Positions 28,904 through 62,917 of a DNA stretch of 64,000 nucleotides are shown piece by piece; within the stretch, counting starts at the first letter, position 1; each line of letters begins with the position of its first letter. Position numbers and translations under genes: made by a program. The DNA comes from an uncultured Gammaproteobacteria bacterium (GTDB taxonomy: Bacteria; Patescibacteriota; Microgenomatia; Levybacterales; GWA1-39-11), in NCBI GenBank assembly GCA_964472415.1, contig CAYYLC010000001.1, positions 131,269 through 195,268 of the forward strand, in the 5' to 3' direction. The notes beneath the pieces are model-generated. The model did not search any database and was not told the origin of the DNA. It was given only the letters and a program-made list of their open reading frames with translations.

Positions 28904-29659
28904 ATGAAGCCATTCCTCCTCTCTGTAGTTATCCCTTCGTATAACGAAATGGCGAATCTTCAAAAGGGAACTCTCACAAAAGTTCTGAGTTATTTATCAG
29001 GTCAAAAGTATGACTTCGAGATAATTGTAGTAGATGATGGGAGTACAGATGGAAGTAGGCAATATGTAGGACATTTTATAAAAAAACATAAAAAAATAAA
29101 GCTTATTGAGGGAAAGCATAGTGGGAAAGCAGGGGCAGTGACGCAAGGGGTTCTAAAAGCAAAAGGAGATTATGTGTTATTTACAGACATGGATCAGGCA
29201 ACACCGATTGAGGAAATTGAAAAGTTATTGCCACAGGTGAAGAAGGGGTATGATGTGATTATCGGATCTCGTGAAGGACAGAGGAGAGGTGCACCATTCA
29301 CTCGAAAAATAATGGCAAAAAGCATGGTAATCTTGCGTTCGGCTATCGTGGGAATCCCTAATATAAAAGATACGCAGTGCGGATTTAAGTTATTTACGAA
29401 AGATGCAGCAAAAGATATATTCAAAAAAGTAAACAAGGTCCATAATGGATTCAAAGCGATAAGAGGATCATCTGTCACTGCAGGATTTGATATTGAGCTC
29501 TTATATATTGCGGAGAGCAAGGGTTATAAGATCAAAGAAATTCCTGTTACCTGGCTTTATGTTGAAACACGTCGGGTGAGCCCGATAAAAGATTCTATTG
29601 AGGGAGTTTTTGAACTATTTCGCATCAAGAAAAATATTCTTTCCGGTGTTTATAATTAA
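28904..29659 (+). CDS. GT2 glycosyltransferase, Dpm1/GtrB-like polyprenyl-phosphate sugar synthase
   Basis: LSVVIPSYNE ... IIVVDDGSTDGS ... YVLFTDMDQATP; TATAAT (28891-28896) lies 7 nt before the ATG. Confidence 0.8.
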   Translation: MKPFLLSVVIPSYNEMANLQKGTLTKVLSYLSGQKYDFEIIVVDDGSTDGSRQYVGHFIKKHKKIKLIEGKHSGKAGAVTQGVLKAKGDYVLFTDMDQATPIEEIEKLLPQVKKGYDVIIGSREGQRRGAPFTRKIMAKSMVILRSAIVGIPNIKDTQCGFKLFTKDAAKDIFKKVNKVHNGFKAIRGSSVTAGFDIELLYIAESKGYKIKEIPVTWLYVETRRVSPIKDSIEGVFELFRIKKNILSGVYN

Positions 29660-29662
29660 TGT

Positions 29663-30829
29663 ATGATACATAAAACCCTTTTCCCCTTGTGGCTCCTTGG
29701 GGGAATATTTTTGTTTTTATATTCATTTACGCAAGTTGATCTGTCGCTTACGTTCTCTCAAGCGTCTATTTTTCAGCAAGTCCAAAAATCATTCCAATAC
29801 ATTGGATGGTTTAACCGGCCACTTTCCGCGTATCTTTATATCGGAATAATTTTCTATTTATCTATTTTATTTATCATAACGCTTTTTGCAATTTCAAAAA
29901 ATAAAATATCTAAAAAATCATTGTGGTGGATTATTATTTTGGTCGCAGTTATTCTTACGCCTTCATATAATGCGTTTTCATATGATTTATTTAATTATAT
30001 TTTTGATGCGAGGATAGTATCGCATTATGGTCAGAATCCGTATGAGTTTCGTCCTCTAGATTTTGCAACAGATCCCATGCTTTCGTTTATGCGTTCAACA
30101 CATCGAGTATATCCGTATGGTCCAGTATGGCTTGGGATAACGGCACCGATAACATTTGTTTCCCATGAGATATTTGCGCTTAGCTTTGCACTATTTAAGA
30201 TCGTAGGAACATTAGCATTTCTCGGGACAGCGTTTTTTATCGGGAAATTGGCTGCTCATTTAAAAATGAAAAATACAAATTTTTCTATTGCGCTTTTCGC
30301 ATTGAATCCATTGATTTTAATTGAAGGATTAGTTTCTTCTCATAATGAGATCGTAATGATGTTTTTTGCAGTGATGTCTTTTTATTTTTTATTTACAAAA
30401 AGACATACATTCTCTCTTATGGGATTTTTTATATCAGTAGGGATAAAATATGCAACTTTTATTTTCCTTCCTATATATATTGCAAAATTATTTATAAAAA
30501 AACTTTCTGATAGGAGCTTGATGCAGTTTACGATTGCGTTGGGGATTCTTGCAGTTGTGATTACGTCTGTTGCGTCGGGACAAAATAAAAACCCTGAATT
30601 CCAGCCTTGGTATTTGTTGCTTGTTGCACCATTTATTTCATTCTCAGATAACAAATTTATAAAAAGTTTGCTTCTTGCAGTTTCTTTCGTGGTCCTGTTT
30701 TCATATGTACCATTTCTCTATAATGGAAGTTGGCCTGTGCAAATCGTTGCGATAAAAAATACCTTGGTCGTGATTGGGATTTTGATAGGAATTATTTTTT
30801 ACTATTTATATAAGACAAAGATAAAATGA
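29663..30829 (+). CDS. GT87/DUF2029-like polytopic membrane glycosyltransferase
   Basis: 388 aa; SYDLFNYIFDARIVSHYGQNPY ... YPYGPVW resembles DUF2029/PimE-like motifs; multi-TM. Confidence 0.5.
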   Translation: MIHKTLFPLWLLGGIFLFLYSFTQVDLSLTFSQASIFQQVQKSFQYIGWFNRPLSAYLYIGIIFYLSILFIITLFAISKNKISKKSLWWIIILVAVILTPSYNAFSYDLFNYIFDARIVSHYGQNPYEFRPLDFATDPMLSFMRSTHRVYPYGPVWLGITAPITFVSHEIFALSFALFKIVGTLAFLGTAFFIGKLAAHLKMKNTNFSIALFALNPLILIEGLVSSHNEIVMMFFAVMSFYFLFTKRHTFSLMGFFISVGIKYATFIFLPIYIAKLFIKKLSDRSLMQFTIALGILAVVITSVASGQNKNPEFQPWYLLLVAPFISFSDNKFIKSLLLAVSFVVLFSYVPFLYNGSWPVQIVAIKNTLVVIGILIGIIFYYLYKTKIK

Positions 30830-32364
30830 ATTTATTTAATAAGATAATGATAAATTTAAGAAAGTATCGTTTTGCGGTAGTTTCTTTTCTCATCATTTCC
30901 CTTACATACTTTGTCAGTCGAATTGTAAGTATTATGCAATTGCCGATCTTTACTGATGAGGCGATTTATACTCGATGGTCACAGATTGCATATAACGATG
31001 CGAATTGGCGCTTCATATCACTAACTGATGGAAAGCAGCCATTATTTGTGTGGTTGCAGATGGCGTTTATGCATTTTTTTGATGACCCGCTCTTTGCAGG
31101 GAGATTAGTTTCTGTGCTTGCTGGATTTGGAGCATTAGTAGGAGTTTTTTTTCTTACCCAGCTTATTTTCAAAAATATAAAAGTTTCATTATTTGCGGCT
31201 TTCTTGTATCTTATATATCCATTCGCGCTCATCTATGATCGATTAGCATTGTATGAGTCGCTTCTCGCAATGTTTTTTATATGGGCATTGTATTTTCAAA
31301 TTTTACTTGTAAAAAAAATGCGACTTGATATCGCGATGATTTTAGGATTTGTATTGGGTGGAGCAGTGCTTACTAAGTCTTCAGGATTTCTATCCATTTA
31401 TATGATGCCATTTTTATATTTGTTGCTAGATTTTGGAAAAAGGGCTTTTAAGGTAAACGCCTTGAAATTCACTGTCTTTTTGGTAGTTTCTATTATTTTG
31501 GCAAATGCAATATATGCAATCCTTAGACTATCACCCTTTTTTCATATTATTGAACAGAAGAATTCTATATTTGTATATCCAGTTTCAGAATGGTTGCGAT
31601 TTTCGTTGGATATAAAGATTGCTAATTTTATCAGTAACCTCAGGGGAATTTTTGACTGGTTTGTGATCTACTTTAGTGTTCCATTCATTCTGGCAATGTT
31701 TTTTTCATTTTCTGTTAAATCGTTGTATAGAGAGAAAATTATTTTACTTTTATGGTTCTTGCTTCCAGTGAGTGCTTTAATATTGTTTGGGAAAACGATT
31801 TATCCACGTTATTTATTTTTTATGACACTGCCACTCTTACCGCTTGTTGCAGTTGGCTTTTTGAAACTTGTTGAAGTTGTAAAAAGTAAAATTGCTATTG
31901 GATTTATTATAATCGCATTTTTTATGTATCCGATTTATACAAACTATATGATTCTTATCAATTTTCAGGATGCTCCCATCCCAGTCCTTGATCGTGAACA
32001 GTTGATAAATGGATGGCCGGCAGGCGGAGGGGTAAAAGAGTCAATAGAATTTTTTGAGAATGAAGCGCGTAATAAGCAGATTATTATCGCAACGCAGGGA
32101 ACATTTGGTCTTATGCCATATTCTTACGAAATATATTTAAATGAGAATTCAAATATTGAAGTGAGAGGGTATTGGCCTATTGAAGATAATCCTCCACGAG
32201 AATTGTTAGATGCTGAAAAAGATGTATATGTGGTATTTTATCAACCTTGCCCGCAGTGTAGGTATCCAGGTGATGCACCAGATACGTGGCCAATAGAAAA
32301 GATACGTGAATATAGAAAAGGGGATGGGATAACGACACTTGGATTATACAAGTTTTTGCAGTAG
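30826..32364 (+). CDS. GT39/ArnT/PMT-family (GT-C) membrane glycosyltransferase
   Basis: 512 aa; first-loop IFTDEAIYTRW (DE motif) and multi-TM topology. Confidence 0.6.
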   Translation: MNLFNKIMINLRKYRFAVVSFLIISLTYFVSRIVSIMQLPIFTDEAIYTRWSQIAYNDANWRFISLTDGKQPLFVWLQMAFMHFFDDPLFAGRLVSVLAGFGALVGVFFLTQLIFKNIKVSLFAAFLYLIYPFALIYDRLALYESLLAMFFIWALYFQILLVKKMRLDIAMILGFVLGGAVLTKSSGFLSIYMMPFLYLLLDFGKRAFKVNALKFTVFLVVSIILANAIYAILRLSPFFHIIEQKNSIFVYPVSEWLRFSLDIKIANFISNLRGIFDWFVIYFSVPFILAMFFSFSVKSLYREKIILLLWFLLPVSALILFGKTIYPRYLFFMTLPLLPLVAVGFLKLVEVVKSKIAIGFIIIAFFMYPIYTNYMILINFQDAPIPVLDREQLINGWPAGGGVKESIEFFENEARNKQIIIATQGTFGLMPYSYEIYLNENSNIEVRGYWPIEDNPPRELLDAEKDVYVVFYQPCPQCRYPGDAPDTWPIEKIREYRKGDGITTLGLYKFLQ

Positions 32365-32368
32365 TTAT

Positions 32369-34780
32369 ATGGTTAAAAGAAGCACTTTTCTTGCACTTAT
32401 TATCTTTATTTTTGTAACGGTTTTATTTTTCTATAAAGCGGTTTTTCAGGGTCAAGTCCCGTTTCCAGGCGATTTATTAGTCGGAAATTATGCTCCATAT
32501 AACTCATATTCGTTTATCGGTTATGCACCTGGGAGCTTTCCACATAAAGCACAAAATATTGATGTAGTGGAGCAGTTGTACCCATGGAAGTTTTTTTCTA
32601 TCGAGATATTGAAAAGCTTTGAATTCCCACTCTGGAATCCGTATAATTTTTCTGGCACACCGCATATTGCAGCAATTCAGTCAGGAACGTTTTATCCATT
32701 TAATATTTTATTTTTTATTCTTCCATTTGTCTTGGCGTGGTCAATATTTATTATTCTTCAGCCTATTTTGGCAGGATTTTTTACTTACTTATTTCTTAGA
32801 AAGTTAAAATTACACGTTAGTAGTTGTTTATTTGGCGGGATAGCTTTTGCTTTTTCCTCCTTTTTAGTGGTCTGGATGCAGTATGGAAATATGGTGCATG
32901 CGCTTATTTGGCTGCCCTTGATATTATGGCTAATATTGCATTTGTTCGAAAAACCTTCACTTCTCAAATCAGTAATTTTATCAATGCTTTTATCTTTCTG
33001 TGTTTTTGCAGGACATTTCCAGATTTCATTATATGTATATGTATTTAGTTTTATCTTTGCTCTGTTTGTGTTAATTGCGTTTTATAAAGGCTTTTTTTTC
33101 AGGAGGTTTTTAACAATAGGAAGTATTTATGCTTTCTCACTTTTTCTTTCTGCAATGCAGACCCTTCCATCAATAGAGATATTTCTTGCATCGTCTCGAT
33201 CTGAATATGTTTTAGAAATTTTAGTGGGGTTTCTTATTCCACAATATCACTCTATTTCTGTATTGTTTCCAGATTTTTTTGGAAGTCCTGTGACGAGAAA
33301 CTATTGGCCAACAGGCACCTATATAGAACGGGCAATATATTTCGGAATTATCCCGTTCTTCTTCGCATTATATGCAGTTGTGCGAAATAGAAATCGGTAT
33401 GTATGGTTTTTTATGATAGCAATGCTTGCTGTTTTTCTTATTACGTTCGATACGATTATTACAAAATTTATGTATTCTCTCTATATTCCACCGATAATTG
33501 GCACTTCTGTTCCAACACGACTTATATTTGTTTTTGCATTTTCCGGAAGCGTACTGGCAGCATTTGGATTTAATAGGATATTAGAAGAGAGAAGAGTGCG
33601 ATATTTCCTTATTTCTGCAGGGATTTTAACTTCAATAGTTTTTTCTATATGGTTTTTTGTCTTAGTTTCACCAATTTTATTTATCGAGTATTCATGGTTT
33701 CAGGATATAAAAACTTCGCTTCGTAATATGATAATTCCGACTGGAGTATTAGCAATTGCTCTCGTTGCATCATTTATTTATATAAGACTATTAAGAAGAC
33801 ATTCTAGAAATTCCCTTATCGTATTTACGGTTATCATAATTACATTTACTGCTTTTGAACTTTTTATTTTCTTTCAAAAATTTACGCCCTTTTCTCCTCA
33901 GGAAGCAGTATATCCGAAGAATTCTATGCTTAGTTTTATTAGGGAAAATCAAGATTTTTATAGGAGTTGGGGATATGGATCAGCAAACATTCCAGCAAAT
34001 ATTCAGACCTATGAGGAGATTTATTCAACGGATGGATATGATCCATTTTATATAAAACGATATGGAGAACTGTTATCTACGACAGGTGATGGAAAAGTTT
34101 CTCCAGATATTATGCGAGCAAATGCAAGATTGATCGGAGGGTTTGGAGAAGAAGATTTGAAAAATAATTTTTATCGGCAACGGCTCATGAACCTTCTTGG
34201 TGTTAAATATGTCTATCATAAAAAATCTCAGGATAATCATGCTTTTGATAAGACATTTGATGAAAATACCTATGAACTTGTTTGGCATGATCAGGATTTG
34301 CAAATTTATGAAAATAAAGATGTATTGCCAAGGGCTTTTATTGTGAATGATTATATTCTTCTGAGAGACGGTAATAAAATTATAGATGCGTTGTACGATG
34401 ACACAATGGATCTGTCACAGACTATAATTCTCGAAAAAAAACCCAATATAGAGGCGCAAAATAAGAGAAATGACAATATGGTCACTATAAACAAATATAG
34501 CGGTAATGAGATCGAGTTAGTAGTAGATTCAGAAAGCTCAGGACTCCTATTTTTATCTGATGCATATTTTCCAGGATGGAGCGCATACGTAAATGACGAA
34601 AAGAGGGAAATCTATCGTGCAAATTATTCATTCCGTGCAGTCGAAGTTCCTAAAGGGAAGAGTGTTGTTGTATTCCGGTATGAGCCACAAATGTTTGTCA
34701 TAGGAATATGGATTTCTGGAATTTCATTTGGATTGGTTTCTATTATAATAATATTTGCGATTTTGAGAAGAAAAATATGA
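32369..34780 (+). CDS. YfhO-family membrane protein (GT-C-like glycosyltransferase)
   Basis: LYPWKFFSIEILKSFEFPLWNPYNFSGTPHIAAIQSGTFYPFNILFF; C-terminal LLFLSDAYFPGWSAYVNDEKREIYRANYSFRAVEVPKGKSVVVFRYEP plus a final TM helix. Confidence 0.75.
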   Translation: MVKRSTFLALIIFIFVTVLFFYKAVFQGQVPFPGDLLVGNYAPYNSYSFIGYAPGSFPHKAQNIDVVEQLYPWKFFSIEILKSFEFPLWNPYNFSGTPHIAAIQSGTFYPFNILFFILPFVLAWSIFIILQPILAGFFTYLFLRKLKLHVSSCLFGGIAFAFSSFLVVWMQYGNMVHALIWLPLILWLILHLFEKPSLLKSVILSMLLSFCVFAGHFQISLYVYVFSFIFALFVLIAFYKGFFFRRFLTIGSIYAFSLFLSAMQTLPSIEIFLASSRSEYVLEILVGFLIPQYHSISVLFPDFFGSPVTRNYWPTGTYIERAIYFGIIPFFFALYAVVRNRNRYVWFFMIAMLAVFLITFDTIITKFMYSLYIPPIIGTSVPTRLIFVFAFSGSVLAAFGFNRILEERRVRYFLISAGILTSIVFSIWFFVLVSPILFIEYSWFQDIKTSLRNMIIPTGVLAIALVASFIYIRLLRRHSRNSLIVFTVIIITFTAFELFIFFQKFTPFSPQEAVYPKNSMLSFIRENQDFYRSWGYGSANIPANIQTYEEIYSTDGYDPFYIKRYGELLSTTGDGKVSPDIMRANARLIGGFGEEDLKNNFYRQRLMNLLGVKYVYHKKSQDNHAFDKTFDENTYELVWHDQDLQIYENKDVLPRAFIVNDYILLRDGNKIIDALYDDTMDLSQTIILEKKPNIEAQNKRNDNMVTINKYSGNEIELVVDSESSGLLFLSDAYFPGWSAYVNDEKREIYRANYSFRAVEVPKGKSVVVFRYEPQMFVIGIWISGISFGLVSIIIIFAILRRKI

Positions 34781-36318
34781 AACAGTTCTTAAAATATATA
34801 GTCCCTTATGTAATCCTTATAGTTATTTGTATTCCTGCGCTTTTACCATTTATACATACAGGATTCATTGCTACGGATGACGGTTCTTGGTTGATAATTC
34901 GACTTTCTGCTTTTTATGATTCGTTTCGCGATGGACAATTTCCAGTGCGATTCGTGGAAAGAATAAATTTTGGCTATGGATATCCTGTTTCCAATTTTTT
35001 ATACCCGGGCTATTTATATATAGGTTCGGTGATTCATTTTGTAGGGTTTGGATTTATTGAATCAGTAAAAATATTATTTGGATTATCTATAGTTTTCTCT
35101 GCATTTTTTTCCTACATTTGGTTTCGGAGATTGTTTGGAAAAATAGATTCTCTTGTAGGGTCATTTGTATATTTATATACACCATATCATCTTTTTGATA
35201 TGTATAAGAGGGGATCATTGGGTGAGGCACTTTCTATTTCTGTTTTACCGCTCGCGTTTTATGGAATTGAAAAAGCAAGCACGATCTTGATTGCGCTTTC
35301 CGTATTTTCAATTTTATTGTTTCATAACACGCTTGCCGTTTTATTCATCCCTCTTATTCCTCTATATGCGTTCATGAGAAAGTCTTTTTTAAGATCACTT
35401 CCCGGGATAATTCTGGGAGGACTTATGTCTTCATTTTTTACGATTCCAGCAATTTTTGAGTTACGATACACAAAGTTTTTAGAAACGTCTATCTCAAATC
35501 CATTCGAGTATTTTGCAGACATTCAGTTGATAGGGATCGGTTCTCTAATAATTTTTGTTGGTCTTTTGTTTTTATTGTTTACGATCTATAAGAAGGAGCT
35601 TAATAGAGTTCCATATAGCGGATTCGTGATTCTAATGAGTATAATTTTTATTCTTACTTTATTTTTTAGTTCTTCATTCAGCAAATTTATTTGGGAAAAC
35701 ATAAATTCTTCATGGATCCAATTTCCATATCGATTACTGTCTCTTGTAATTATTGCATCCGCTTTTTTTGCAGCATATATAAGTTATATTCTCTTTAATA
35801 GAATAAAGATTATCGTGGGAATAGTTATAGTTTTTATAACTATTATTTCTGCATATAGTTATTTCACGGCTATTTCTTATACAGATCACCCGGAAGAGTT
35901 TTATACAACAAATGAAGCGACTACTACCATTCATGATGAATACATGCCGAAATGGGTTGAAAGGAATCCTACTAGCAGATATACGAATAAAATTGAAGTA
36001 ATTTCTGGGAGTGTTGCAGTTTCAAATATCTCAGAAAAGTCTAATCTTATTGAATTTCAGACAGTGGTAGCTGAACCATCTGTTATCCGCGTAAATACGA
36101 TTTACTATCCGGGATGGAAAGTTTTTGTGGAAGGTGAGAAGCGAGAGATTAATTATGAAAATGAGCGTGGAGTTATAGAGTTCGAACTAGAGCAATACGA
36201 TGATAGAGTATATATTTCGTTCCAGGAAGATTTTGTGAGAATAATTGCCGATATGATAAGTATCATTGCAGTAATTATCCTGATATATTATATTTCTCGT
36301 CCGCTACTAAAATTCTAA
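34777..36318 (+). CDS. PF10131/COG5617-like (6-pyruvoyl-tetrahydropterin-synthase-related) polytopic membrane protein, predicted GT-C transferase
   Basis: HTGFIATDDGSWLIIRLSAFYDSFRDGQFPVRFVERINFGYGYPVSNFLYPGYLY; ATG overlaps the previous stop (ATGA at 34777-34780). Confidence 0.55.
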   Translation: MKQFLKYIVPYVILIVICIPALLPFIHTGFIATDDGSWLIIRLSAFYDSFRDGQFPVRFVERINFGYGYPVSNFLYPGYLYIGSVIHFVGFGFIESVKILFGLSIVFSAFFSYIWFRRLFGKIDSLVGSFVYLYTPYHLFDMYKRGSLGEALSISVLPLAFYGIEKASTILIALSVFSILLFHNTLAVLFIPLIPLYAFMRKSFLRSLPGIILGGLMSSFFTIPAIFELRYTKFLETSISNPFEYFADIQLIGIGSLIIFVGLLFLLFTIYKKELNRVPYSGFVILMSIIFILTLFFSSSFSKFIWENINSSWIQFPYRLLSLVIIASAFFAAYISYILFNRIKIIVGIVIVFITIISAYSYFTAISYTDHPEEFYTTNEATTTIHDEYMPKWVERNPTSRYTNKIEVISGSVAVSNISEKSNLIEFQTVVAEPSVIRVNTIYYPGWKVFVEGEKREINYENERGVIEFELEQYDDRVYISFQEDFVRIIADMISIIAVIILIYYISRPLLKF

Positions 36319-55292: not shown

Positions 55293-56948
55293 ATGAAAAA
55301 ATTCATCTTGACTCATAAAATTATATTACTCTTTATTTCTATTTTGTTTTTAGGTTCTGTATTAAGGTCGTGGGATTTGGGAAAGACTCCTCTGTCACCC
55401 ACCTGGGATGAAGTAGCGCTTGGGTATAATGCATATTCGATCTTTGAAACAGGGAAAGATGAATTTGGGAAAACGCTTCCTGTTGTGATGCGATCATTTG
55501 ATGATTATAAGCCAGCATTTTACACGTATCTTATTATTCCCAGTTATAAAATCTTTGGACTCAATGAATTTTCTGTACGACTTCCTTCGGCAATCATGGG
55601 AATATTGACTCTGGTAAGTGTTTATTTTCTTATAAAAAAACTCTTTAAAAGAGAGAGTATTGCGCTTCTTACCATGCTTCTTCTTGCAATTTCCCCATGG
55701 CATATTCAGTTTAGTAGAGTTGCATTTGAGACAAATGTAGGACTTGCTTTGAATGTTTTTGCTGCGACCTTTTTCCTGTATGGGTTAAAAAGACACTGGA
55801 TGCTCCTACTTGCAGCACTTTTTGCGGGTTTGAGTGTGCATACGTACCAAAGCGACAGAGTATTTACTCCGCTATTTATTCTCGGTATGATTATTATTTT
55901 TTGGAAGCAATTTTTTACAGTTCCTCGTAAATTCATCATTTGGTCTTTTATCATTGGTTTTGTTGTTATTTTGCCATTTATTATTACTGTTTTTACAGAC
56001 AGTAACACCTTGCTTCGCGCGAAGGGTACAAGTGTTTTTAGTAATAATGTTGAGCTCTTGAAGAATAATGCGACAAGAAATGAATTAAATATAGAGACGG
56101 GAGATACTCTTGGAAAGATTATTGATAATAGGCGGATAGTATATGCGAAGGCAGTCCTTGATGGATACCTGTCACATTTTAATTCTAATTGGCTCTTAAA
56201 GGGGGATATTGCTCGACATCATGCGCCTGAAATGGGGCTTATTTATCTTTGGGAATTCCCCTTTATTCTGATCGGAATTTATCTTTTGATATTCTCAAAA
56301 TTTGATAAAAAGACAAAGTTTTTTGTATTTTTCTGGTTTCTTCTCGCTCCACTTCCTGCATCTATTACGACAGGAGTTCCTCATGCAGTGCGCACGTTTA
56401 ATTTCCTCCCAACTTGGCAAATTTTCACTGCATTAGGAATTCTGGGGATGTATAGTTCTGTTTCCAATTTCAAATATAAAGTGTTGCGGATAAGACTTGA
56501 ATATATTGTTGTTTTGTTGCTTGTTTTGTTTGCCATATTTAATTTTATATATTATCTTAATCAGTATTTCGTACAGCAGAATTATTTTCATGCACGGGAC
56601 TGGCTGCATGGTCATCGGGAAATGATTAGTGAAATGTTGAAGCGAGAAGAAAATTATTCAAAAGTTCTTATAACCGATAAGGAACCGATGGATAGGGCTA
56701 GTATGTTTTTCTTATTTTATAGTCAATATCCACCAGAGGAATATCAAAAAGTAAGTCCTCAATCTGGTGGATTTGCGGTGCATCCAGAGTTTGATAAGTA
56801 TATATTTAGGCCGATAGATTGGGAAAAAGATAGCACTTTGAAAGATACACTTATTGTAGGTCTCCCCTCAGAGATTCCTCAAAAAGAAGCTATTTATACA
56901 GTGTATTATCCAAATGGTGATCCTGCGCTTGTCATGGCAGAACGATAA
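55293..56948 (+). CDS. GT39/ArnT-like membrane glycosyltransferase, tandem paralog
   Basis: LSPTWDEVALGYNAYSIFETGKDEFGKTLPVVMRSFDDYKPAFYTYL ... LNEFSVRLPSAIMG. Confidence 0.65.
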   Translation: MKKFILTHKIILLFISILFLGSVLRSWDLGKTPLSPTWDEVALGYNAYSIFETGKDEFGKTLPVVMRSFDDYKPAFYTYLIIPSYKIFGLNEFSVRLPSAIMGILTLVSVYFLIKKLFKRESIALLTMLLLAISPWHIQFSRVAFETNVGLALNVFAATFFLYGLKRHWMLLLAALFAGLSVHTYQSDRVFTPLFILGMIIIFWKQFFTVPRKFIIWSFIIGFVVILPFIITVFTDSNTLLRAKGTSVFSNNVELLKNNATRNELNIETGDTLGKIIDNRRIVYAKAVLDGYLSHFNSNWLLKGDIARHHAPEMGLIYLWEFPFILIGIYLLIFSKFDKKTKFFVFFWFLLAPLPASITTGVPHAVRTFNFLPTWQIFTALGILGMYSSVSNFKYKVLRIRLEYIVVLLLVLFAIFNFIYYLNQYFVQQNYFHARDWLHGHREMISEMLKREENYSKVLITDKEPMDRASMFFLFYSQYPPEEYQKVSPQSGGFAVHPEFDKYIFRPIDWEKDSTLKDTLIVGLPSEIPQKEAIYTVYYPNGDPALVMAER

Positions 56949-56957: not shown

Positions 56958-57728
56958 ATGAAAAAATTATCAGTGGTGCTTGCGACATTTAATGAAGAAG
57001 AGAATATTGAACGATGCTTGAAGTCGGTTCAGGGTTTTGCTGATGAAACAATTATTGTAGATGGGAAATCAAAAGATAGGACTACTGAAATAGCAAAAAA
57101 TTTTGGCGCAATAGTGATCTCTACTACGAACAAGCCGAACTTTCATATCAATAAGCAAAAAGCAATTGATGCAGCAACGGGAAAATGGATTTTGCAATTA
57201 GATGCGGATGAGGTGGTTAGTGAGGGATTAAAAAAGGAAATAGGAAAAATTATAGAGAGAAATCCCGAAGAAAATGGATATTGGATGCCAAGAAAAAATT
57301 ATTTTCTTGGAAGATTTTTAATGAAAGGAGGCCAATATCCTGATTACACGATACGATTATATAGGAATGGAAAAGGAAAGCTTCCTCAAAAAGATGTGCA
57401 TGAGCAAGCAGTGGTTGAAGGGAAGGTGGGTTATTTGAAGTATGGACTGCTCCACTATCCATATAGGGACTTTAAGTTTTATGTAGAGAAATGGAATAGA
57501 TATAATATGTTGTTTGCCAAGCAAATCGAAGATGAGATGAGAGGAAGAAATATCTTTTATAAATTAATTCATGGCTTCGGGTATTTAGTGTTGCGTCCGG
57601 CACATTGGCTTCTCACCACCTATATTAGACATAAGGGGTTTTACGATTCTTGGCAAGGGTTCGTTTTTTCAGCTATGTCTGCACTGAGATTTCCAGCATC
57701 GTATATAATGTATTTAATCAAAAGATGA
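56958..57728 (+). CDS. GT2 glycosyltransferase
   Basis: KKLSVVLATFNEEENIERCLKSV ... TIIVDGKSKDRTTEIAKNFGA ... ILQLDADEVVS. Confidence 0.8.
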   Translation: MKKLSVVLATFNEEENIERCLKSVQGFADETIIVDGKSKDRTTEIAKNFGAIVISTTNKPNFHINKQKAIDAATGKWILQLDADEVVSEGLKKEIGKIIERNPEENGYWMPRKNYFLGRFLMKGGQYPDYTIRLYRNGKGKLPQKDVHEQAVVEGKVGYLKYGLLHYPYRDFKFYVEKWNRYNMLFAKQIEDEMRGRNIFYKLIHGFGYLVLRPAHWLLTTYIRHKGFYDSWQGFVFSAMSALRFPASYIMYLIKR

Positions 57729-58702
57729 GAAATATTTTAGTAACAGGTGGAGCAGGATATATCGGAAGTTTTATGGTTAAGTCTCTTCTAGAGAGAGGAG
57801 ATAGCGTTGTGGTGTTTGATAATCTACAGAGAGGGCATAGGAATGCAGTTGATCGTCGGGCAGAGTTTGTTGAGGGAGATATTCTGCACGAGAAGGATAT
57901 TCAAGATATTTTTAAAAAGCATCAATTTGATGCAGTTCTACATTTTGCAGGACTTATATCAGTTGAAGAGTCATCTAAAAAGCCTGAAATGTATTATGAG
58001 AATAATGTGGTAGGATCCCAGAAGCTTTTCAGTGCAGCTCTTGAGATTGGGAATGTAAAAAACTTTATTTTTTCATCTACTGCTGCAGTATATGGAAATC
58101 CAACTAAAGTTCCAATTCCGGAAGATCATCCGAAAAATCCTACGAGTCCGTATGGGAAGAGTAAGTTAGAAACTGAAAAAAATCTTCAAGATTTGCGAGA
58201 AAGGAATAATGAGGTGAATTATGCGATTTTACGGTATTTTAATGCATGCGGCGCAGCAATAAATGGTGAAATTGGAGAGAGTCATGATCCAGAGACGCAC
58301 ATTATTCCTCTTGCGATTCGTGCTGCAATGCAAAATAAAGAGTTTAAGCTATATGGGACTGATTATGATACGAAAGACGGAACGTGTATTCGTGATTATA
58401 TTCATGTACTTGATCTTGTGGAAGCACATATACTTGCACTTGATAAAATTATGGGAGATGGTGGAGGTTATTGTTATAATGTGGGGACAGGGGAAGGCTT
58501 TACGAATAGAGAAGTAGTCGAAATGGTGAGGAGGGTTAGTGATAAGGATATTCAAATCGTAGAAGCGGAGAGGCGAGCAGGGGACTCGAGCGAATTAGTG
58601 GCAGATGTTACTAAGATAAAGAAGGAATTAGGATTCAGTCCTCAATATTCAGATCTTTCTACGATTGTTGCTAGTGCATGGAAGTGGCACAATCCTAAAT
58701 AA
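57725..58702 (+). CDS. galE: UDP-glucose 4-epimerase
   Basis: MRNILVTGGAGYIGSFMV (Rossmann GxxGxxG), YGKSK (YxxxK), FNACGA; ATG overlaps previous stop (ATGA 57725-57728); ORF opens at 57650. Confidence 0.9.
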   Translation: MRNILVTGGAGYIGSFMVKSLLERGDSVVVFDNLQRGHRNAVDRRAEFVEGDILHEKDIQDIFKKHQFDAVLHFAGLISVEESSKKPEMYYENNVVGSQKLFSAALEIGNVKNFIFSSTAAVYGNPTKVPIPEDHPKNPTSPYGKSKLETEKNLQDLRERNNEVNYAILRYFNACGAAINGEIGESHDPETHIIPLAIRAAMQNKEFKLYGTDYDTKDGTCIRDYIHVLDLVEAHILALDKIMGDGGGYCYNVGTGEGFTNREVVEMVRRVSDKDIQIVEAERRAGDSSELVADVTKIKKELGFSPQYSDLSTIVASAWKWHNPK

Positions 58703-59733
58703 TGAAAATAGGAATAGATATTTCTCCATTATTTTCTGGTCATAAAGTTCGTGGAGTAGGTTCATATGTTTCCCTCCTCAAAGAAAATATTGAGAAGTTT
58801 GATCCTAAAAACTCTTATACTTTTTTTAAAGGTAAAGCGCCAGAGGAGCTTGATGTCGTACATTACCCGTATTTTGATCCTTTTTTCCCGGTAATGCCGT
58901 TTCAGAAAAGAACGAAGACTGTAGTGACGGTTCATGATTTAATCCCAATAAAGTTTAAGAAATATTTTCCAAGTGGGATTAAGGGGGCTCTTAGGTGGCA
59001 ATACAATAAGCGATTATTAAAAAGTGCAGACAGGATTATTGTTGATTCGGTAGCTTCAAAAAATGATGTAATAGATTTGGTGGGCGTTAAAAAAGAATTA
59101 ATAGACGTAGTATATTTAGGGGTAGATTCAATATATAAAAAGATGAGTGTTTCTGAAAATGATAGAAGTCTAATTTCAGGAAAATATGATTTACCGAAGA
59201 ATTTTTTCCTTTATGTTGGAGACGTTACGTGGAATAAAAATCTACCGCGGATTATTGAATCCGCTAAAAAGGCAGATGTCCATTTATTATTGGTTGGTAA
59301 AGCTTTAGTCGGTAAAAATTTTGAGAGGGATAATCCGTGGAATCGTGACAAAGTAAAGGTGGTCGATTTAATAGAGAGAGATACTAAGATAAGCGCATTG
59401 GGATTTGTTTCAGATGAAGACTTGTTGACTCTCTATAACCTTGCTGAAGGGCTTTTAATGCCTTCTTTGTATGAAGGATTTGGCTTGCCTGTTTTGGAGG
59501 CGATGAGTACAGGATGCCCGGTGATTACGAGTAGATTAGGAAGCCTGCCAGAAGTGGGTGGAGATGCTGTCTTATATACTGATGCAGAATCAATTGATTC
59601 TATTGCGCAAGAGATAGATAATCTTTATTTGAATAAAAAACTTCAGAATGAATTATCTGAAAAAGGACTTGAGCGAGCCAGAAAATTTAGTGTTGAAAGA
59701 ATGATGAAGAATATTGCACGATGTTATCGTTAG
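58702..59733 (+). CDS. GT4 glycosyltransferase
   Basis: EGFGLPVLEAMSTGCPVITSRLGSLPEVGGDAVLY. Confidence 0.8.
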   Translation: MKIGIDISPLFSGHKVRGVGSYVSLLKENIEKFDPKNSYTFFKGKAPEELDVVHYPYFDPFFPVMPFQKRTKTVVTVHDLIPIKFKKYFPSGIKGALRWQYNKRLLKSADRIIVDSVASKNDVIDLVGVKKELIDVVYLGVDSIYKKMSVSENDRSLISGKYDLPKNFFLYVGDVTWNKNLPRIIESAKKADVHLLLVGKALVGKNFERDNPWNRDKVKVVDLIERDTKISALGFVSDEDLLTLYNLAEGLLMPSLYEGFGLPVLEAMSTGCPVITSRLGSLPEVGGDAVLYTDAESIDSIAQEIDNLYLNKKLQNELSEKGLERARKFSVERMMKNIARCYR

Positions 59734-59736
59734 TTC

Positions 59737-60996
59737 ATGAGAAGTAAAATAATTCAACTCATTAAGCACCCATTTATATCGGGGAGCATCATTGTGATGA
59801 GTGGGTCATTGGGAGCAAATTTTATTCATTTCTTGTTCAACATTTTCTTGAGTAGAAATTTAGCAGTACAAGATTATGGCTCTGTGGCGAGTCTGATGGC
59901 CATAATAACTCTTTTTGGGATATCCTCAAGTGCTATAGCGCCTACTATCGTAAGCTTTACAAGCAGGAGCTTTCAGGAGAACGATTTAGAGAATGTCAGA
60001 TCTGTATATTTCAAGATCTTTAATTTTTTCCTTTTATTATCTGGGATTATTCTAGTTATTTTCTTAGCATTTAGTAGAATGATTTCTGTTTTTCTTAATA
60101 TTTCTAATGGAGCAATTCTAGTAGAAATAACAGGAATTACAGTTTTTATTGGGTTTATGAGTATGCTTAATCTTTCGCTTTTTCAGGCGAGATTATCGTT
60201 TCGAGTATTTTCTTCACTAAACATATTATCCGCAATTATAAAACTATTTTTAGGGATGGTATTTATTTTTTATGGATTTAGCACAGTAGGAGTAATGTTT
60301 GCGATATTGTTGTCATATGTAATCCCCTATTTATTAGGTTTTGGATTTATAAAATTTCTATTCAAAAGAAATGTTTCGAACGTAAGAATTAAATGGAAGG
60401 ATATCGTGGTATACGCTGCGCCATCTGGGGCAGCACTTGTGGGACTCACTGCCATTAGTTCAATAGACTTATTATTGGTAAAGCATTTATTTGATGCAAA
60501 TTCTGCGGGTGTGTATGCGGGCTTGTCGCTTTTGGGAAGGGTAGTGTTTTTCTTTACTGCACCTATCACAGTAGTGATGTTTCCTCTCATGTCGAGGAAA
60601 TACGATAAAAAAGAGAATTATAATAAAGTATTATTATTTGCAATATTAACAGTTGGCGTATCATCATTTGGAATATCGTTATTTTATTTCCTCTTCCCAG
60701 AATTCGTTATTAGATTGTTCCTTAAAAATGAAGTTTATCTAAATGCAGTACCATATCTAGGAATGATTGGGATATTTGCTTCTCTTCATTCTCTTAACTC
60801 AGCTATGATGTATTATTTCCTTTCTATAAGAAAGACATGGATATATAAGCCGATTGTCGTAGCGGGACTATTACAAGCACTTGGAATATATTTATTCCAT
60901 GATTCATTAGGATTAGTAATTGGGATATCTATTTTAATGACTGCGTTATTACTCATTTTCCTTTCCTTTTATGCGTTTTTCCTTACTAAAAAATAA
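59737..60996 (+). CDS. Wzx-type oligosaccharide flippase (MOP superfamily), second copy
   Basis: 419 aa, around 12 TM helices. Confidence 0.65.
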   Translation: MRSKIIQLIKHPFISGSIIVMSGSLGANFIHFLFNIFLSRNLAVQDYGSVASLMAIITLFGISSSAIAPTIVSFTSRSFQENDLENVRSVYFKIFNFFLLLSGIILVIFLAFSRMISVFLNISNGAILVEITGITVFIGFMSMLNLSLFQARLSFRVFSSLNILSAIIKLFLGMVFIFYGFSTVGVMFAILLSYVIPYLLGFGFIKFLFKRNVSNVRIKWKDIVVYAAPSGAALVGLTAISSIDLLLVKHLFDANSAGVYAGLSLLGRVVFFFTAPITVVMFPLMSRKYDKKENYNKVLLFAILTVGVSSFGISLFYFLFPEFVIRLFLKNEVYLNAVPYLGMIGIFASLHSLNSAMMYYFLSIRKTWIYKPIVVAGLLQALGIYLFHDSLGLVIGISILMTALLLIFLSFYAFFLTKK

Positions 60997-61034
60997 CTAT
61001 ATATGTTTATTTTAGCCTTTGATATACTATTTTA

Positions 61035-61808
61035 ATGAAAAAGACGAAGCGTTGGAAGCTCTCATTGATCGTTCCGGCATATAAGCAGGAGCGAACTATT
61101 CAAAAAGATATTGAGAATATAGAAAAATCATTGAGGAATTACGATTTGGATTATGAGCTTATTGTAGTAGTCGATGGAAAATTAGATAAAACGGCTGATA
61201 AGCTCAAGAAGCTCGATCTCAAAAAGATGATTGTTGTGCAACTAGAAAAAAACTATGGTAAAGGATATGCAGTTAGGCGGGGAGTAGAAAGAGCAAATGG
61301 TGATATTATAGGTTTTTTGGATGCGGGAATGGATATAGATCCTGCCGGGATCGATATGCTCATAAACCACATGATGTGGTATGATGCAGATGTGATAGTG
61401 GGAAGCAAATTGCATCCTGTTTCCCAAGTAGAGTATCCATTTTATAGAAAGGTATTATCATGGGGATATCGGAAATTTACCTACTTACTATTTGGATTTA
61501 AAGTTCGAGATACGCAAGTTGGACTAAAATTATTTAAGAAGAATGTAGCAAAAGATGTATTCTCTCGTTCGCTTGTTAAGAAGTTTGCTTTTGATGTTGA
61601 GATTTTAGCACTTGCGTATTCTTTAGGATATAAAAAAATTTATGAAGCACCGATTAAGCTAAAATTGGACAAGAGGTCTTCAATAAAAAATTCCAATTTT
61701 TGGAGAATTATTTTTATCATGCTTATAGATACATTCGCTGTATTCTATCGTCTAAAGATTAAGAAATATTATAAAAGGAGTAATCAGAAAAATTGGCTTC
61801 CTGAATAA
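61035..61808 (+). CDS. GT2 glycosyltransferase (Dpm1-like)
   Basis: LSLIVPAYKQERTI ... LIVVVDGKLDKT ... NYGKGYAVRRGVERANGDIIGFLDAGMDIDP. Confidence 0.75.
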   Translation: MKKTKRWKLSLIVPAYKQERTIQKDIENIEKSLRNYDLDYELIVVVDGKLDKTADKLKKLDLKKMIVVQLEKNYGKGYAVRRGVERANGDIIGFLDAGMDIDPAGIDMLINHMMWYDADVIVGSKLHPVSQVEYPFYRKVLSWGYRKFTYLLFGFKVRDTQVGLKLFKKNVAKDVFSRSLVKKFAFDVEILALAYSLGYKKIYEAPIKLKLDKRSSIKNSNFWRIIFIMLIDTFAVFYRLKIKKYYKRSNQKNWLPE

Positions 61809-62917
61809 TGAATATATTGATTTTAAATTGGCGTGACATTAAAAATCCCAAAAGCGGTGGGGCTGAAATACTAACTCATGAATTGGCAAGGAGACTAGTT
61901 AGGGATGGGCATTCGGTGACACAATTTAGTGCTCTATTCGAGAATGCAAAGAAAGAAGAGATAGTCGATGGAGTGAGATTTATACGCAATGGTGTGCCGG
62001 ACGTGAGGCGCTTTTTTTCATCAGTTCATTTTAAAGCATTCCTTTATTATAGAAAAAATAATTCCCAATTCGATCTTATTATTGATGAAGTGCATGGAAT
62101 TCCTTTCTTTACTCCTCTTTATTCCCGGAGAAAAAAACTTGCACTTATCTGTGAGGTTGCTGGAAATATATGGGATATTTCATTCAAATTCCCATTTAAT
62201 ATTATAGGAAAAACTATAGAAAGAATTTATCATATTTTTTATCAAAACGTAAGGATCGTTACCATTTCTGATTCTTCAAAAAAAGATTTATCAAAGATTG
62301 GTTTTAAAAAAGAACAAATTGATGTACTTACATTGGGTTGTGATGTTCCGATAATAAAGAAATTACCTAAGAAAAATGAGGAATGCACTCTTATCTTTGT
62401 TAGTAGGATAACAAAATCTAAAGGTATTGAGGATGCAGTAAAATCGATTTCTGAAATTAAGAAAATAATTCCTAATATAAAACTCCTAATTCTTGGTAGA
62501 GGAGAAGAAAGATATGTGGAAAAGATCAAAATGATGATTCATGATATGGGGCTAGAGAAAAATATTATGATGCTTGGATTTGTTTCGGAACAAGAAAAAC
62601 GGAATTATTTAGAGAAATCTCACATTCTCATCGTGCCTTCTCGAAAGGAAGGATGGGGTTTGACAATCCACGAAGCTGGCTCTAGAGGAACTCCTGCCAT
62701 AGGATACAACGTAGAGGGATTAAGGGATGTGATAGTGGATAATGTGAATGGAATTATTTGCAAAAATAATTCTCATGCTGATATTGCAAAAAATGCATTA
62801 TTACTATTTTCAAATGAGAAATTATATCGCAAGTTACAGATGGGTGCTATTTCTGAACGAAAAAAATATACATGGGATAGGACATATAGAGAATTCCTCG
62901 AAGTGCTAGGTAGTTGA
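61808..62917 (+). CDS. GT4 glycosyltransferase
   Basis: EGWGLTIHEAGSRGTPAIGYNVEGLRDVIVDNVNGII. Confidence 0.8.
   Translation: MNILILNWRDIKNPKSGGAEILTHELARRLVRDGHSVTQFSALFENAKKEEIVDGVRFIRNGVPDVRRFFSSVHFKAFLYYRKNNSQFDLIIDEVHGIPFFTPLYSRRKKLALICEVAGNIWDISFKFPFNIIGKTIERIYHIFYQNVRIVTISDSSKKDLSKIGFKKEQIDVLTLGCDVPIIKKLPKKNEECTLIFVSRITKSKGIEDAVKSISEIKKIIPNIKLLILGRGEERYVEKIKMMIHDMGLEKNIMMLGFVSEQEKRNYLEKSHILIVPSRKEGWGLTIHEAGSRGTPAIGYNVEGLRDVIVDNVNGIICKNNSHADIAKNALLLFSNEKLYRKLQMGAISERKKYTWDRTYREFLEVLGS

Follow-up and report, generated by a model that had tools for sequence, protein, structure and literature searches.

What does a bacterium of the Candidate Phyla Radiation (CPR) build with 34 kb of contiguous sugar-transfer genes, and on which side of its membrane is the product assembled? 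The question is raised by a 64,000-nucleotide stretch, hereafter the window, of contig CAYYLC010000001.1 (positions 131,269 to 195,268, forward strand), from a genome placed by GTDB in the Patescibacteriota, order Levybacterales. The envelope of CPR/Patescibacteria, through which their presumed episymbiosis would operate, is chemically almost uncharted. The product of the cluster described here is most likely a cell-surface glycan not characterised so far, made in part outside the membrane.

Organisation of the glycosylation cluster

The cluster is made of 26 consecutive plus-strand open reading frames (ORFs, named below by their start coordinate) that extend from 28895 to 62917 and encode proteins of 233-813 amino acids (aa) each (Table 1). 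A Pfam scan was run on the window ORFs of at least 100 aa and on one 85-aa gene encoding a DUF5652 protein. Every one of the 26 ORFs was assigned to a family of glycosylation machinery, 34708 by paralogy and 29663 via its homologs. Nine belong to glycosyltransferase family 2 (GT2) and three to family 4 (GT4). Eleven are multi-spanning transferases of the GT-C fold class, namely three YfhO, three PF10131-like, four PMT_2 and one MptA_B/GT87-like protein. Two Wzx-type flippases and the epimerase GalE complete the set. The G+C content of the window is ca 34-37%.

The genes are tightly packed. According to the ORF coordinates and to gene calls in an independent assembly, 24 of the 25 junctions either overlap by 1-20 bp or leave a gap of at most 44 bp, which is typical of operons. 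The sole large gap of the run (46770-47098) is occupied by the DUF5652 gene, on the minus strand. Glycosylation genes continue past both borders, with a GT87 gene on the 5' side and a YfhO-like gene on the 3' side, both on the minus strand. A tRNA-Glu(CTC) gene lies in the 466 bp that separate the GT87 gene from the first, divergently transcribed gene of the cluster. An Rfam scan revealed two tRNAs only and no riboswitch or leader. A scan for promoters and terminators was uninformative, with 66 promoter-like sites where shuffled sequences gave more (82.8) and about as many terminator-like sites as expected.

An earlier note, made from the letters alone, had described this region as an uninterrupted co-directional supercluster of about 27 genes starting at 28904. 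The 34-kb cluster and its location are confirmed. The first ORF nevertheless opens at 28895, position 28904 being its second ATG, the gene count is 26, and the DUF5652 gene breaks an otherwise co-directional run. Around ten GT2 enzymes, including four or five related to Dpm1, had been announced; we count nine and four, respectively. The numbers of GT4, YfhO, PF10131-like, Wzx and galE genes were upheld by Pfam, NCBIfam and paralogy, as were its family assignments in general.

Paralogs within the cluster are 25-35% identical at the amino-acid level, as measured with BLAST. The longest DNA repeats between 27 and 64 kb are 30-58 nt long with 60-83% identity, and they lie over conserved protein motifs, for example the 'VDDGS' region of the GT2 enzymes and the C-terminal 'YFPGW' region of the YfhO and PF10131-like proteins. 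Moreover, window positions 33323-48000 (14.7 kb) recur with the same genes in a Logan assembly made independently from run SRR8449813. Because of this paralog divergence, these short repeats and this second assembly, we rejected repeat collapse and the mis-assembled concatenation of repeats that the earlier note had named as a possible flaw.

Conservation in Levybacteria and Gottesmanbacteria

A genome scan with the second YfhO copy (43676) yielded 80 loci at 40-49% identity, none of them from the same species. ORFs were called in these loci and each was assigned to its best-matching window protein, which defines positional slots. Almost all informative titles are Candidatus Levybacteria, Levyibacteriota, Gottesmanbacteria, Microgenomates or Patescibacteria, and the named homologs of the other cluster proteins are likewise from Levybacteria. 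These relatives place the source of the window among the Microgenomates, close to Levybacteria; the title 'uncultured Gammaproteobacteria' borne by some third-party-annotation assemblies was taken as a placeholder.

Full 10-kb flanks are available for 46 loci, and 38 of these contain every one of the ten core slots tested. The recurring order begins with two PF10131-like genes (slots 34.7 and 36.3), a Dpm1-like GT2 (37.9 or 28.8), a Wzx flippase (38.6) and two GT2 of the groups called B and C below (40.1 and 41.1). It continues with an optional PF10131-like gene (42.0, corresponding to 42025 and found in 24 of the 80 loci), YfhO (43.6), a group B GT2 (46.0), GT4 (47.0), YfhO (48.1), a group C GT2 (50.4) and a Dpm1-like GT2 (51.3), followed by PMT_2 genes. 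The GT2 of slot 46.0 stands on either side of the slot-43.6 YfhO. Two layouts are seen at this place: either the GT2 comes before YfhO and there is no third PF10131-like gene, or the PF10131-like gene comes before and the GT2 after. In Gottesmanbacteria-type loci, the MptA_B/GT87-like and PMT_2 slots (29.6 and 30.8) directly precede slot 34.7. In a closer relative (locus L083, 62% identity), the 5' end is identical in order to that of the window, with a 251-aa GT2, MptA_B/GT87, PMT_2, YfhO, a 514-aa protein, PF10131, GT2, Wzx and GT2; a Lon gene lies 3 kb upstream of the cluster. Comparison of synteny across related genomes, which had been proposed as a check, thus shows the same core order slot by slot.

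The most conserved core gene is 37990, with a median identity of 64% to its orthologs in 41 loci. Medians for the two Dpm1-like slots are 64% and 55%; those of the other core slots are mostly 40-49%, and that of slot 34.7 is 37.5%. Since the identity between orthologs exceeds the 25-35% measured between paralogs, the duplications are older than the split between Levybacteria and Gottesmanbacteria, every copy having been retained. Such retention argues for distinct functions of the paralogs. The "redundancy" attributed to the cluster by the earlier note is not supported, as each paralog has a positional ortholog, 40-65% identical, in dozens of Levybacteria and Gottesmanbacteria genomes. Its "unusual scale" is real in comparison with model bacteria, but within the lineage such a cluster is the norm.

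The last part of the run behaves differently from the core. The module 56958-62917 (GT2-GalE-GT4-Wzx-GT2-GT4) has no positional counterpart in the sampled loci, save fragments in L028 and L053, and the number of PMT_2 genes differs between loci. The locus thus consists of a conserved core (~29.7-52 kb), probably inherited vertically, followed by PMT_2 genes in varying number and by a Wzx module specific to the strain. Relatives also carry extra genes at the same insertion points. Within the range L002-L081, these encode a PF01663 phosphodiesterase, GT87-like, DUF2079, DUF6056 and PMT_2 proteins and a S-adenosylmethionine-dependent methyltransferase, for example at L002 7909-9168, L033 16954-18360 and L070 16551-17414.

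GT-C enzymes

The three YfhO ORFs score 70.9-98.3 bits against a PF09586 cut-off of 28.5 and are 32-35% identical to one another. A Kyte-Doolittle scan, used throughout to predict transmembrane (TM) segments, gave 10-12 TM helices per copy, with a terminal TM helix in two of them. The predicted function of this family here would be the transfer of a sugar from an undecaprenyl-phosphate (C55-P) carrier to teichoic acid or protein. Two of the PF10131-like proteins, 36318 and 42025, pass the PF10131 cut-off. The third, 34708, was assigned because it is a clear paralog of both (31% identity to 42025 over 553 aa, E=4e-73 with BLAST). Its weak EpsG match (20.5 bits, below the cut-off of 30.1) led us to consider a Wzy/EpsG polymerase, an identity rejected in view of the paralogy.

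Searches of the PDB by sequence with one YfhO and one PF10131-like protein returned no match. The AlphaFold2 model of 36318, obtained with a 50-sequence alignment, has a predicted local distance difference test score (pLDDT) of 91.4 and a predicted TM-score (pTM) of 0.91. Its top 26 matches in the PDB, as listed by Foldseek, are all GT-C enzymes, including AglB, STT3, AftD, ArnT, AftA, EmbA/B/C, ALG12, PglB, Pmt4 and DPY19. The best one, AglB, is a match at the level of the fold only (TM-score 0.42, 13% identity). The C-terminal part of the model folds as a beta-sandwich with a TM helix at its very end, an arrangement shared with YfhO. A 'YFPGW.AY' motif is found in this shared C-terminal module in 32339, 36318, 42025, 43676 and 62948. 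The common module and its motif suggest that the Pfam families YfhO and PF10131 are long and short forms of one superfamily.

The protein encoded by 29663 is itself below the GT87 cut-off, and homologs at 62% identity carry PF26314 (MptA_B_family) and PF09594. Its AlphaFold2 model (pLDDT 88.8) has GPI mannosyltransferase I, PimE and ALG12 as its three best Foldseek matches, with weak E-values (0.06-0.13), a probability of ~1 and TM-scores of ~0.4. The fourth match is a transporter, with a probability of 0.09 and a TM-score of 0.12. Pfam scores above cut-offs and high-probability Foldseek matches to GT-C enzymes only led us to reject the view that the large membrane proteins are transporters. 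The GT-C identity therefore withstood this reassignment test, with the models of both 36318 and 29663 in its favour.

The catalytic acid of GT-C enzymes sits shortly after the first membrane helix. Most GT-C ORFs of the cluster have an Asp or Asp-Glu shortly past TM1, and in 36318 His33-Asp34, just past TM1, is invariant across 50 homologs. No cluster protein matches the STT3 family (PF02516) or contains a WWD motif. For these reasons none of them is a classical oligosaccharyltransferase, and this role was rejected for the PF10131-like proteins in particular.

GT2 enzymes and lipid-sugar synthases

Paralogy, PDB sequence searches and NCBIfam matches divide the GT2 enzymes into three groups. 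Group A (28895, 37990, 51380 and 61035) contains proteins that share ~31% identity among themselves. Group B (40149, 46026 and 56958) resembles GmaR and SunS, GT2 enzymes that glycosylate proteins or peptides; the best PDB sequence match of 40149 is GmaR (22ao, E=7.6e-16), followed by SunS. Group C (41102 and 50445) consists of generic Glyco_tranf_2_3 proteins.

Group A is of special interest for the supply of lipid-linked sugars. The best PDB sequence match of 51380 is the dolichyl-phosphate mannose synthase (DPMS) of Pyrococcus furiosus (5mlz, E=2.1e-15, residues 1-211), followed by ArnC and GtrB, and its best NCBIfam match is AglJ (TIGR04182, 131.9 bits, below the cut-off of 325). The best NCBIfam matches are PgfS, AglJ, ArnC and PpgS for 37990 and PgfS, ArnC and AglJ for 28895, all below cut-offs. 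PgfS is the top match for two GT2 of the window, at ~75 bits against an equivalog cut-off of 500. A dolichyl-phosphate-hexose transferase is also among the matches of the group, and none reaches an equivalog cut-off. Taken together, these similarities support a prediction of group A as Dpm1-like polyprenyl-phosphate sugar synthases at the broad family level only, 51380 and 37990 being the best supported members and 61035 the least. No TM segment is predicted in any of the four, a feature in which they resemble human DPM1, mycobacterial Ppm1 and streptococcal GacI but differ from GtrB.

With YfhO, PF10131-like, PMT_2 and GT87 transferases encoded alongside these synthases, the families and the GT-C fold support the general architecture proposed earlier, in which polyprenyl-phosphate-sugar synthases feed extracytoplasmic GT-C enzymes. 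The proposed "repeated pairing" of the two is not supported, however, with four synthases for eleven GT-C enzymes.

The antisense DUF5652 gene

The DUF5652 gene has tblastn matches in 56 related loci. It is always antisense to the cluster, directly downstream of the pair formed by the slot-43.6 YfhO and the slot-46.0 GT2. The matches are confined to L002-L060, L065 and L067, and none was detected in the other Gottesmanbacteria-type loci within L061-L081. The protein shows about two hydrophobic stretches, as read by eye, and has no Pfam match besides DUF5652. Its role may be that of a membrane-bound partner for the TM-less Dpm1-like synthases, in the manner of GacJ or DPM2/DPM3. It has no sequence similarity to these partners, a direct comparison with GacJ not being part of the analysis.

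Flippases, GalE and missing pathway parts

Besides the two Wzx-type flippases (38678 and 59737), the cluster encodes GalE, which passes the TIGR01179 equivalog cut-off. No priming phosphoglycosyltransferase, either WecA/MraY-like (PF00953) or WbaP-like (PF02397), was detected among the window ORFs with Pfam at E<=0.01; none is seen among the L083 neighbours either, and such an enzyme may be encoded elsewhere in the genome. At the same threshold, no Wzy, Wzz or WaaL matched in the window, the only related signal being the EpsG match of 34708. The absence of Wzy, Wzz and WaaL and of any sugar-nucleotide gene besides galE had been read correctly from the letters. No GtrA-type flippase (PF04138) was found among the scanned ORFs, nor were teichoic-acid genes (TagB/F, LtaS, TagO and LCP) in the window or the related loci. 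Judging from its gene content, the module 56958-62917 looks like an ordinary Wzx-type repeat-unit module that would lack Wzy.

A model for glycan assembly

We favour, with a probability of about one half, a two-compartment assembly line in which a few lipid-phosphate-sugar donors serve many GT-C steps to produce an envelope glycoconjugate. Two synthases accompany at least six GT-C enzymes in the core, and four accompany eleven in the whole run. A few lipid-phosphate-sugar donors used by many linkage-specific GT-C enzymes is the pattern of mycobacterial lipomannan (LM), lipoarabinomannan (LAM) and arabinogalactan synthesis, and of the ALG and glycosylphosphatidylinositol (GPI) pathways in the lumen of the endoplasmic reticulum (ER). 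The mycobacterial pathways, which depend on polyprenyl-phosphomannose (PPM) and decaprenyl-phosphoarabinose (DPA), involve PimE, MptA, MptB, Pmt, Emb and Aft. In both the mycobacterial and the ER-lumen systems, the glycan is elongated and branched outside the cytoplasm. The model is favoured because the donor to GT-C ratio of the cluster matches this pattern and not a 1:1 decoration scheme.

From the families, folds, gene packing and slot conservation observed above, we infer the donors, the order of the steps, the flipped cargo and the acceptor as follows. At the inner face of the membrane, the TM-less Dpm1/AglJ/ArnC-like GT2 enzymes would attach single sugars, taken from nucleotide sugars, to polyprenyl phosphate. 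GalE would interconvert UDP-Glc and UDP-Gal. The other GT2 and the GT4 enzymes would lengthen a lipid-linked primer to a short oligosaccharide. Because no phosphoglycosyltransferase is encoded in the cluster, we propose that the primer may be started by a Dpm1-like enzyme on polyprenyl monophosphate, as by AglJ in haloarchaea. The Wzx-type proteins would flip the lipid-linked intermediates; no GtrA-type flippase is present. Outside, the eleven GT-C enzymes and the two flanking ones would each add a specific residue or linkage, using the few polyprenyl-phosphate-sugar donors. Their target would be the growing glycan and/or a final acceptor, the latter not being encoded in the cluster.

Several points weigh against this model. 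All the Dpm1-like assignments are under the NCBIfam equivalog cut-offs, and these GT2 enzymes do not have the membrane helices of GtrB, ArnC and archaeal DPMS. The Foldseek E-values of the GT87-like model of 29663 are weak (0.06-0.13). No initiating phosphoglycosyltransferase, polymerase, ligase or LCP-type transferase was found in the window, and the relatives were viewed within +/-10 kb of one gene only. Finally, several of the GT-C enzymes may act independently on different acceptors and not sequentially on one glycan.

The foremost alternative, which we regard as unlikely, is direct O-glycosylation of proteins of the Pgf, GtrB-PgtC2 or Pmt type. Each GT-C enzyme would put a single sugar on Ser/Thr-rich surface proteins, such as pili, S-layer proteins, fibres of the giant type encoded upstream or membrane-protein linkers, and there would be no common glycan. 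Indeed, PgtC2, PgfM1 and PgfM2, with GtrB or with PgfS and PgfE, glycosylate Ser/Thr-rich regions in streptococci (PMC12041528, PMC5856776). PgfS is the top NCBIfam match for two of the GT2, although far below its cut-off. Other features pointing the same way are the matches of 53648 and 55293 to the PMT protein-mannosyltransferase family, with a 'DE' motif, the resemblance of group B to the protein glycosyltransferases GmaR and SunS, and the 22% Ser+Thr of the giant protein. However, no acceptor protein gene is found in or beside the cluster in the related loci examined, and linkage between the giant protein and the cluster is lacking in relatives. Protein O-glycosylation also does not account for the presence of at least five cytoplasmic GT2/GT4 enzymes and of two Wzx flippases, or for the low synthase to GT-C ratio.

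The GT-C enzymes could also decorate a teichoic-acid-like or secondary wall polymer made elsewhere, in the style of CsbB-GtcA-YfhO or GacI/J/K/L, each adding one side-chain sugar to a pre-existing backbone. YfhO with a GtrB-like GT2 glycosylates lipoteichoic and wall teichoic acids in Bacillus and Listeria (PMC5836110, PMC8035078), and parts of the window match a known variant in which the GT-A enzyme is cytoplasmic and works with a small membrane protein and Wzx (PMC8035078). We nonetheless consider this improbable: the backbone genes sought (TagB/F, LtaS, TagO, LCP) and a GtrA-type flippase are lacking as described above, and eleven GT-C enzymes on four synthases are far beyond any described decoration system. 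To our knowledge, teichoic acids have not been demonstrated in Microgenomates. As regards the final acceptor, wall-polymer decoration and protein O-glycosylation are compatible with the assembly line.

Even less probably, the locus makes a heteropolysaccharide of the capsule or O-antigen kind that depends on Wzx, the part of Wzy/WaaL being played by a PF10131-like or YfhO protein and repeat units being polymerised or ligated by such non-canonical enzymes. Two Wzx, GT2, GT4 and GalE proteins are present, 34708 weakly matches the Wzy-like EpsG, and the module 56958-62917 is repeat-unit-like and varies between genomes. On the other hand, a priming phosphoglycosyltransferase, Wzy, Wzz and a ligase are missing at E<=0.01, the EpsG signal is below cut-off in a protein whose PF10131 paralogy is clear and which has a relative of GT-C type, and the strongly conserved order and content of the core are unlike those of hypervariable O-antigen or capsule loci. 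As for an artefact of assembly or annotation (a collapsed repeat, or mislabelled transporters), which the many paralogous genes in tandem might evoke, it is virtually excluded by the divergence of the paralogs, the lack of long repeats, the 14.7 kb found in SRR8449813, the order in 80 other genomes, the Pfam scores above cut-offs and folds that match GT-C enzymes, with transporters at a probability below 0.1.

Relation to known systems

The closest parallels to the assembly-line model are the multi-component transmembrane glycosylation systems of Gram-positive bacteria. GacI/J/K/L combines a GT-A enzyme that is not anchored in the membrane with a small membrane protein, a Wzx-type flippase and a GT-C transferase (PMC8035078). 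Parts of the cluster match this variant (b), the cytoplasmic GT-A type, as described by Rismondo and colleagues (PMC8035078). Likewise, CsbB/GtcA/YfhO, GtlA/GtlB and GacI-L combine a GT2 making a polyprenyl-phosphate sugar, a flippase and a GT-C enzyme, often YfhO, outside the membrane. In contrast with these systems, the window has eleven GT-C enzymes of four families on four synthases and not 1:1 pairs, its synthases are TM-less, GtrA is lacking, and there are no backbone-polymer genes nearby. Its small protein is a DUF5652 protein, and among the loci sampled its gene order is kept in two candidate phyla. Compared with the GtrA/GtrB/GtrC system, GT2 enzymes of the broad GtrB/CsbB/ArnC family and GT-C enzymes are present, whereas no TM helices are predicted in these GT2 enzymes and GtrA (PF04138) was not found.

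The streptococcal Pgf and GtrB-PgtC2 systems (PMC5856776, PMC12041528) group genes for a GT2, YfhO GT-C enzymes and a UDP-hexose 4-epimerase, as does the cluster. The Pgf operon, however, has four genes beside its adhesin substrates, whereas the cluster has 26 and no adjacent adhesin gene, either in the window or in relatives. In addition, GalE lies in the non-conserved module, and the PgfS match is ~75 bits against 500.

The mycobacterial and corynebacterial network (Ppm1; PimE, MptA and MptB of GT87; Pmt of GT39; Emb and Aft) resembles the cluster in that few donors feed many GT-C enzymes, with MptA_B/GT87-like and PMT families present in the window. The catalytic domain of Ppm1 is also devoid of membrane helices. 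The differences are that Emb and Aft are lacking, that YfhO and PF10131-like proteins dominate, that the genes form one operon-like locus instead of being dispersed, and that the host is a CPR bacterium with a genome probably smaller than 1 Mb.

Archaeal Agl N-glycosylation, whose parts include the Dol-P-hexose synthases AglJ and AglD, AglG/I/E and the oligosaccharyltransferase AglB, shares the start by a Dpm1-like enzyme on polyprenyl monophosphate that is proposed here, a Wzx-like protein linked to flipping (AglR) and a PMT_2-like GT-C enzyme that adds the last sugar outside (AglS). AglJ is also the best NCBIfam match of 51380, and AglB the best structural match of 36318. Unlike this system, the window is from a bacterium, has no STT3/AglB match and no WWD motif, and its AglJ score is 131.9 against 325. 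Finally, Wzx/Wzy loci have in common with the cluster the Wzx, GT2, GT4 and GalE proteins and the co-directional packing; the cluster differs from them by the lack of a priming transferase, Wzy, Wzz and ligase, by the dominance of GT-C enzymes and by its conserved core.

Significance

The component families and the general mechanism are already known. Eleven to thirteen GT-C genes in one locus, with dominance of YfhO and PF10131-like proteins, appear to be undescribed, as do the deep conservation of order across small-genome Microgenomates and the embedded DUF5652 gene. The literature on CPR, Patescibacteria, Microgenomates and Levybacteria yielded no description of the cluster; most subscription journals were outside this search, which makes it weak evidence.

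A complete Levybacteria chromosome (L064) has 762,565 bp, and a 34-kb locus would represent ~4% of a genome of this size. Because very small genomes keep a >20-kb ordered glycosylation locus at 40-50% protein identity, its product is likely a major, selected surface structure. More tentatively, the Microgenomates (Levybacteria and Gottesmanbacteria) might share an old, vertically inherited extracytoplasmic assembly line for an undescribed major surface polymer, with DUF5652 as the synthase partner. At least six to eleven non-redundant GT-C enzymes, mostly YfhO and PF10131-like, could then build a lineage-specific glycopolymer or lipoglycan. Functionally, such a line would resemble the mycobacterial synthesis of LM, LAM and arabinogalactan or the ALG/GPI reactions of the ER lumen, and it would begin on polyprenyl monophosphate with no classical priming enzyme. 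Such a polymer would be a likely mediator of host attachment. The locus also offers expressible targets, namely the two highly conserved polyprenyl-phosphate-sugar synthases, the slot-specific orthologs of the poorly characterised YfhO and PF10131 families and the DUF5652 micro-protein, and their heterologous expression would make envelope composition testable without culture.

Table 1 Glycosylation genes of the window and features at their borders (TM, predicted transmembrane helices; MOP, multidrug/oligosaccharidyl-lipid/polysaccharide exporter superfamily; AF2, AlphaFold2)
Feature	Position	Strand	Evidence
GT87 GT-C, flanking, divergent	27271..28428	-	PF09594 112.8 bits, clearly above cut-off
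tRNA-Glu(CTC), 5' cluster boundary	28713..28786	-	ARAGORN; Rfam tRNA 55.3 bits
GT2 Dpm1-like, group A, first gene, 0 TM	28895..29659	+	PF00535 103.8 bits
MptA_B/GT87-like GT-C, ~9 TM	29663..30829	+	GT87 19.4 bits (cut-off 25); homologs; AF2/Foldseek
PMT_2 (ArnT/PMT-like) GT-C, 10 TM, 'TDE' after TM1	30826..32364	+	PF13231 49.8 bits
YfhO GT-C, copy 1, 12 TM	32339..34780	+	PF09586 98.3 bits
PF10131-like GT-C, copy 1 (gene call start 34777)	34708..36318	+	paralogy to 42025 and 36318
PF10131-like GT-C, copy 2	36318..38000	+	PF10131 52.9 bits; AF2/Foldseek
GT2 Dpm1-like, group A, no predicted TM helix	37990..38703	+	PF00535 90.6 bits
Wzx-type MOP flippase, 12 TM (gene call start 38723)	38678..40177	+	Polysacc_synt_3 153.3 bits
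GT2 group B (GmaR/SunS-like), predicted cytoplasmic	40149..41105	+	PF00535 86.3 bits
GT2 group C (Glyco_tranf_2_3)	41102..42019	+	PF13641 39.5 bits
PF10131-like GT-C, copy 3	42025..43716	+	PF10131 40.2 bits
YfhO GT-C, copy 2 (gene call start 43697)	43676..46042	+	PF09586 74.9 bits
GT2 group B (SunS-like)	46026..46769	+	PF00535 69.7 bits; best NCBIfam match SunS, below cut-off
DUF5652 small membrane protein, 85 aa	46771..47028	-	PF18893 30.8 bits (cut-off 23.4)
GT4	47099..48157	+	PF00534 77.4 bits
YfhO GT-C, copy 3	48154..50445	+	PF09586 70.9 bits
GT2 group C	50445..51383	+	PF00535 88 bits; PF13641 51.5 bits
GT2 Dpm1/AglJ-like, group A, no predicted TM helix	51380..52081	+	PF00535 122.6 bits
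PMT_2-like GT-C, borderline, 9 TM	52083..53603	+	PF13231 26.1 bits (cut-off 26.1)
PMT/PMT_2 (GT39/ArnT-like) GT-C, 'WDE' after TM1	53648..55291	+	PF13231 40.3 bits; PF02366 34.7 bits
PMT/PMT_2 GT-C, tandem paralog of 53648 (35% identity)	55293..56948	+	PF13231 54.2 bits; PF02366 45.8 bits; weak match to ArnT 5ezm
GT2 group B, first gene of accessory module	56958..57728	+	PF00535 75.2 bits
GalE, UDP-glucose 4-epimerase (probable start ATG 57725)	57650..58702	+	TIGR01179 410.9 bits (cut-off 262.3); Epimerase 201.6 bits
GT4	58702..59733	+	PF00534 91.7 bits
Wzx-type flippase, second	59737..60996	+	Polysacc_synt_3 63.2 bits
GT2 group A, weakest of the four Dpm1-like assignments	61035..61808	+	PF00535 75.6 bits; mixed NCBIfam matches
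GT4, last gene of the run	61808..62917	+	PF00534 129.5 bits
YfhO-like gene, convergent, frame open at base 64000 (window end)	62948..64000	-	YfhO 51.1 bits, C-terminal part of profile

The giant protein and the upstream region

Upstream of the cluster, the window encodes Lon, MazG-like and DUF4383 proteins, an F-type ATP-synthase operon and a type I restriction-modification system. A giant protein of 1629 aa (18164-23053, minus strand) is also found there. It has no Pfam match, an N-terminal membrane helix and 22% Ser+Thr, and is rich in Ser, Thr and Gly. Among its distant homologs are proteins with a PF13884 tail-fibre chaperone domain and others annotated as beta-strand repeat proteins, and it is plausibly a surface fibre. 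Its family has 18 detectable homologs, compared with more than 1700 for cluster proteins, and two of these are close (56% identity over the full length, and 58% for a partial match).

The earlier note had put this protein forward as a substrate candidate on the basis of adjacency. It lies 5.8 kb from the cluster on the other strand, with Lon, three small genes, the GT87 gene and the tRNA in between. In the relative that has the 56% homolog, the giant protein again heads the ATP-synthase operon, and its other side holds unrelated genes and no glycosylation cluster. At L083, conversely, the 5' end of the cluster and Lon are conserved without the giant protein. The conserved linkage is thus with the atp operon, and adjacency gives no support to the giant protein as the substrate. 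With its Ser+Thr content, it could nevertheless be glycosylated.

In the window, the giant protein gene is directly upstream of the ATP-synthase genes (11625-18156) and, like them, on the minus strand. The interval between the giant protein and the atp genes encodes two unannotated proteins of ~263 and ~228 aa, and the same layout is seen in L082 (10001-20885). The ATP-synthase beta ORF (12040-13830, minus strand) encodes 596 aa, compared with 458 aa in L082, and ends with a highly acidic, low-complexity tail of ~140 aa rich in Glu, Lys and Asp. A tRNA-Gln(CTG) gene (11432-11503, minus strand) follows the atp operon. Region 3154-10945 (minus strand) encodes the restriction-modification subunits HsdM, HsdS and HsdR, and genes for a KilA-N domain protein (8574-9410) and a DUF3644 protein (6227-7210) are located between the Hsd subunit genes.

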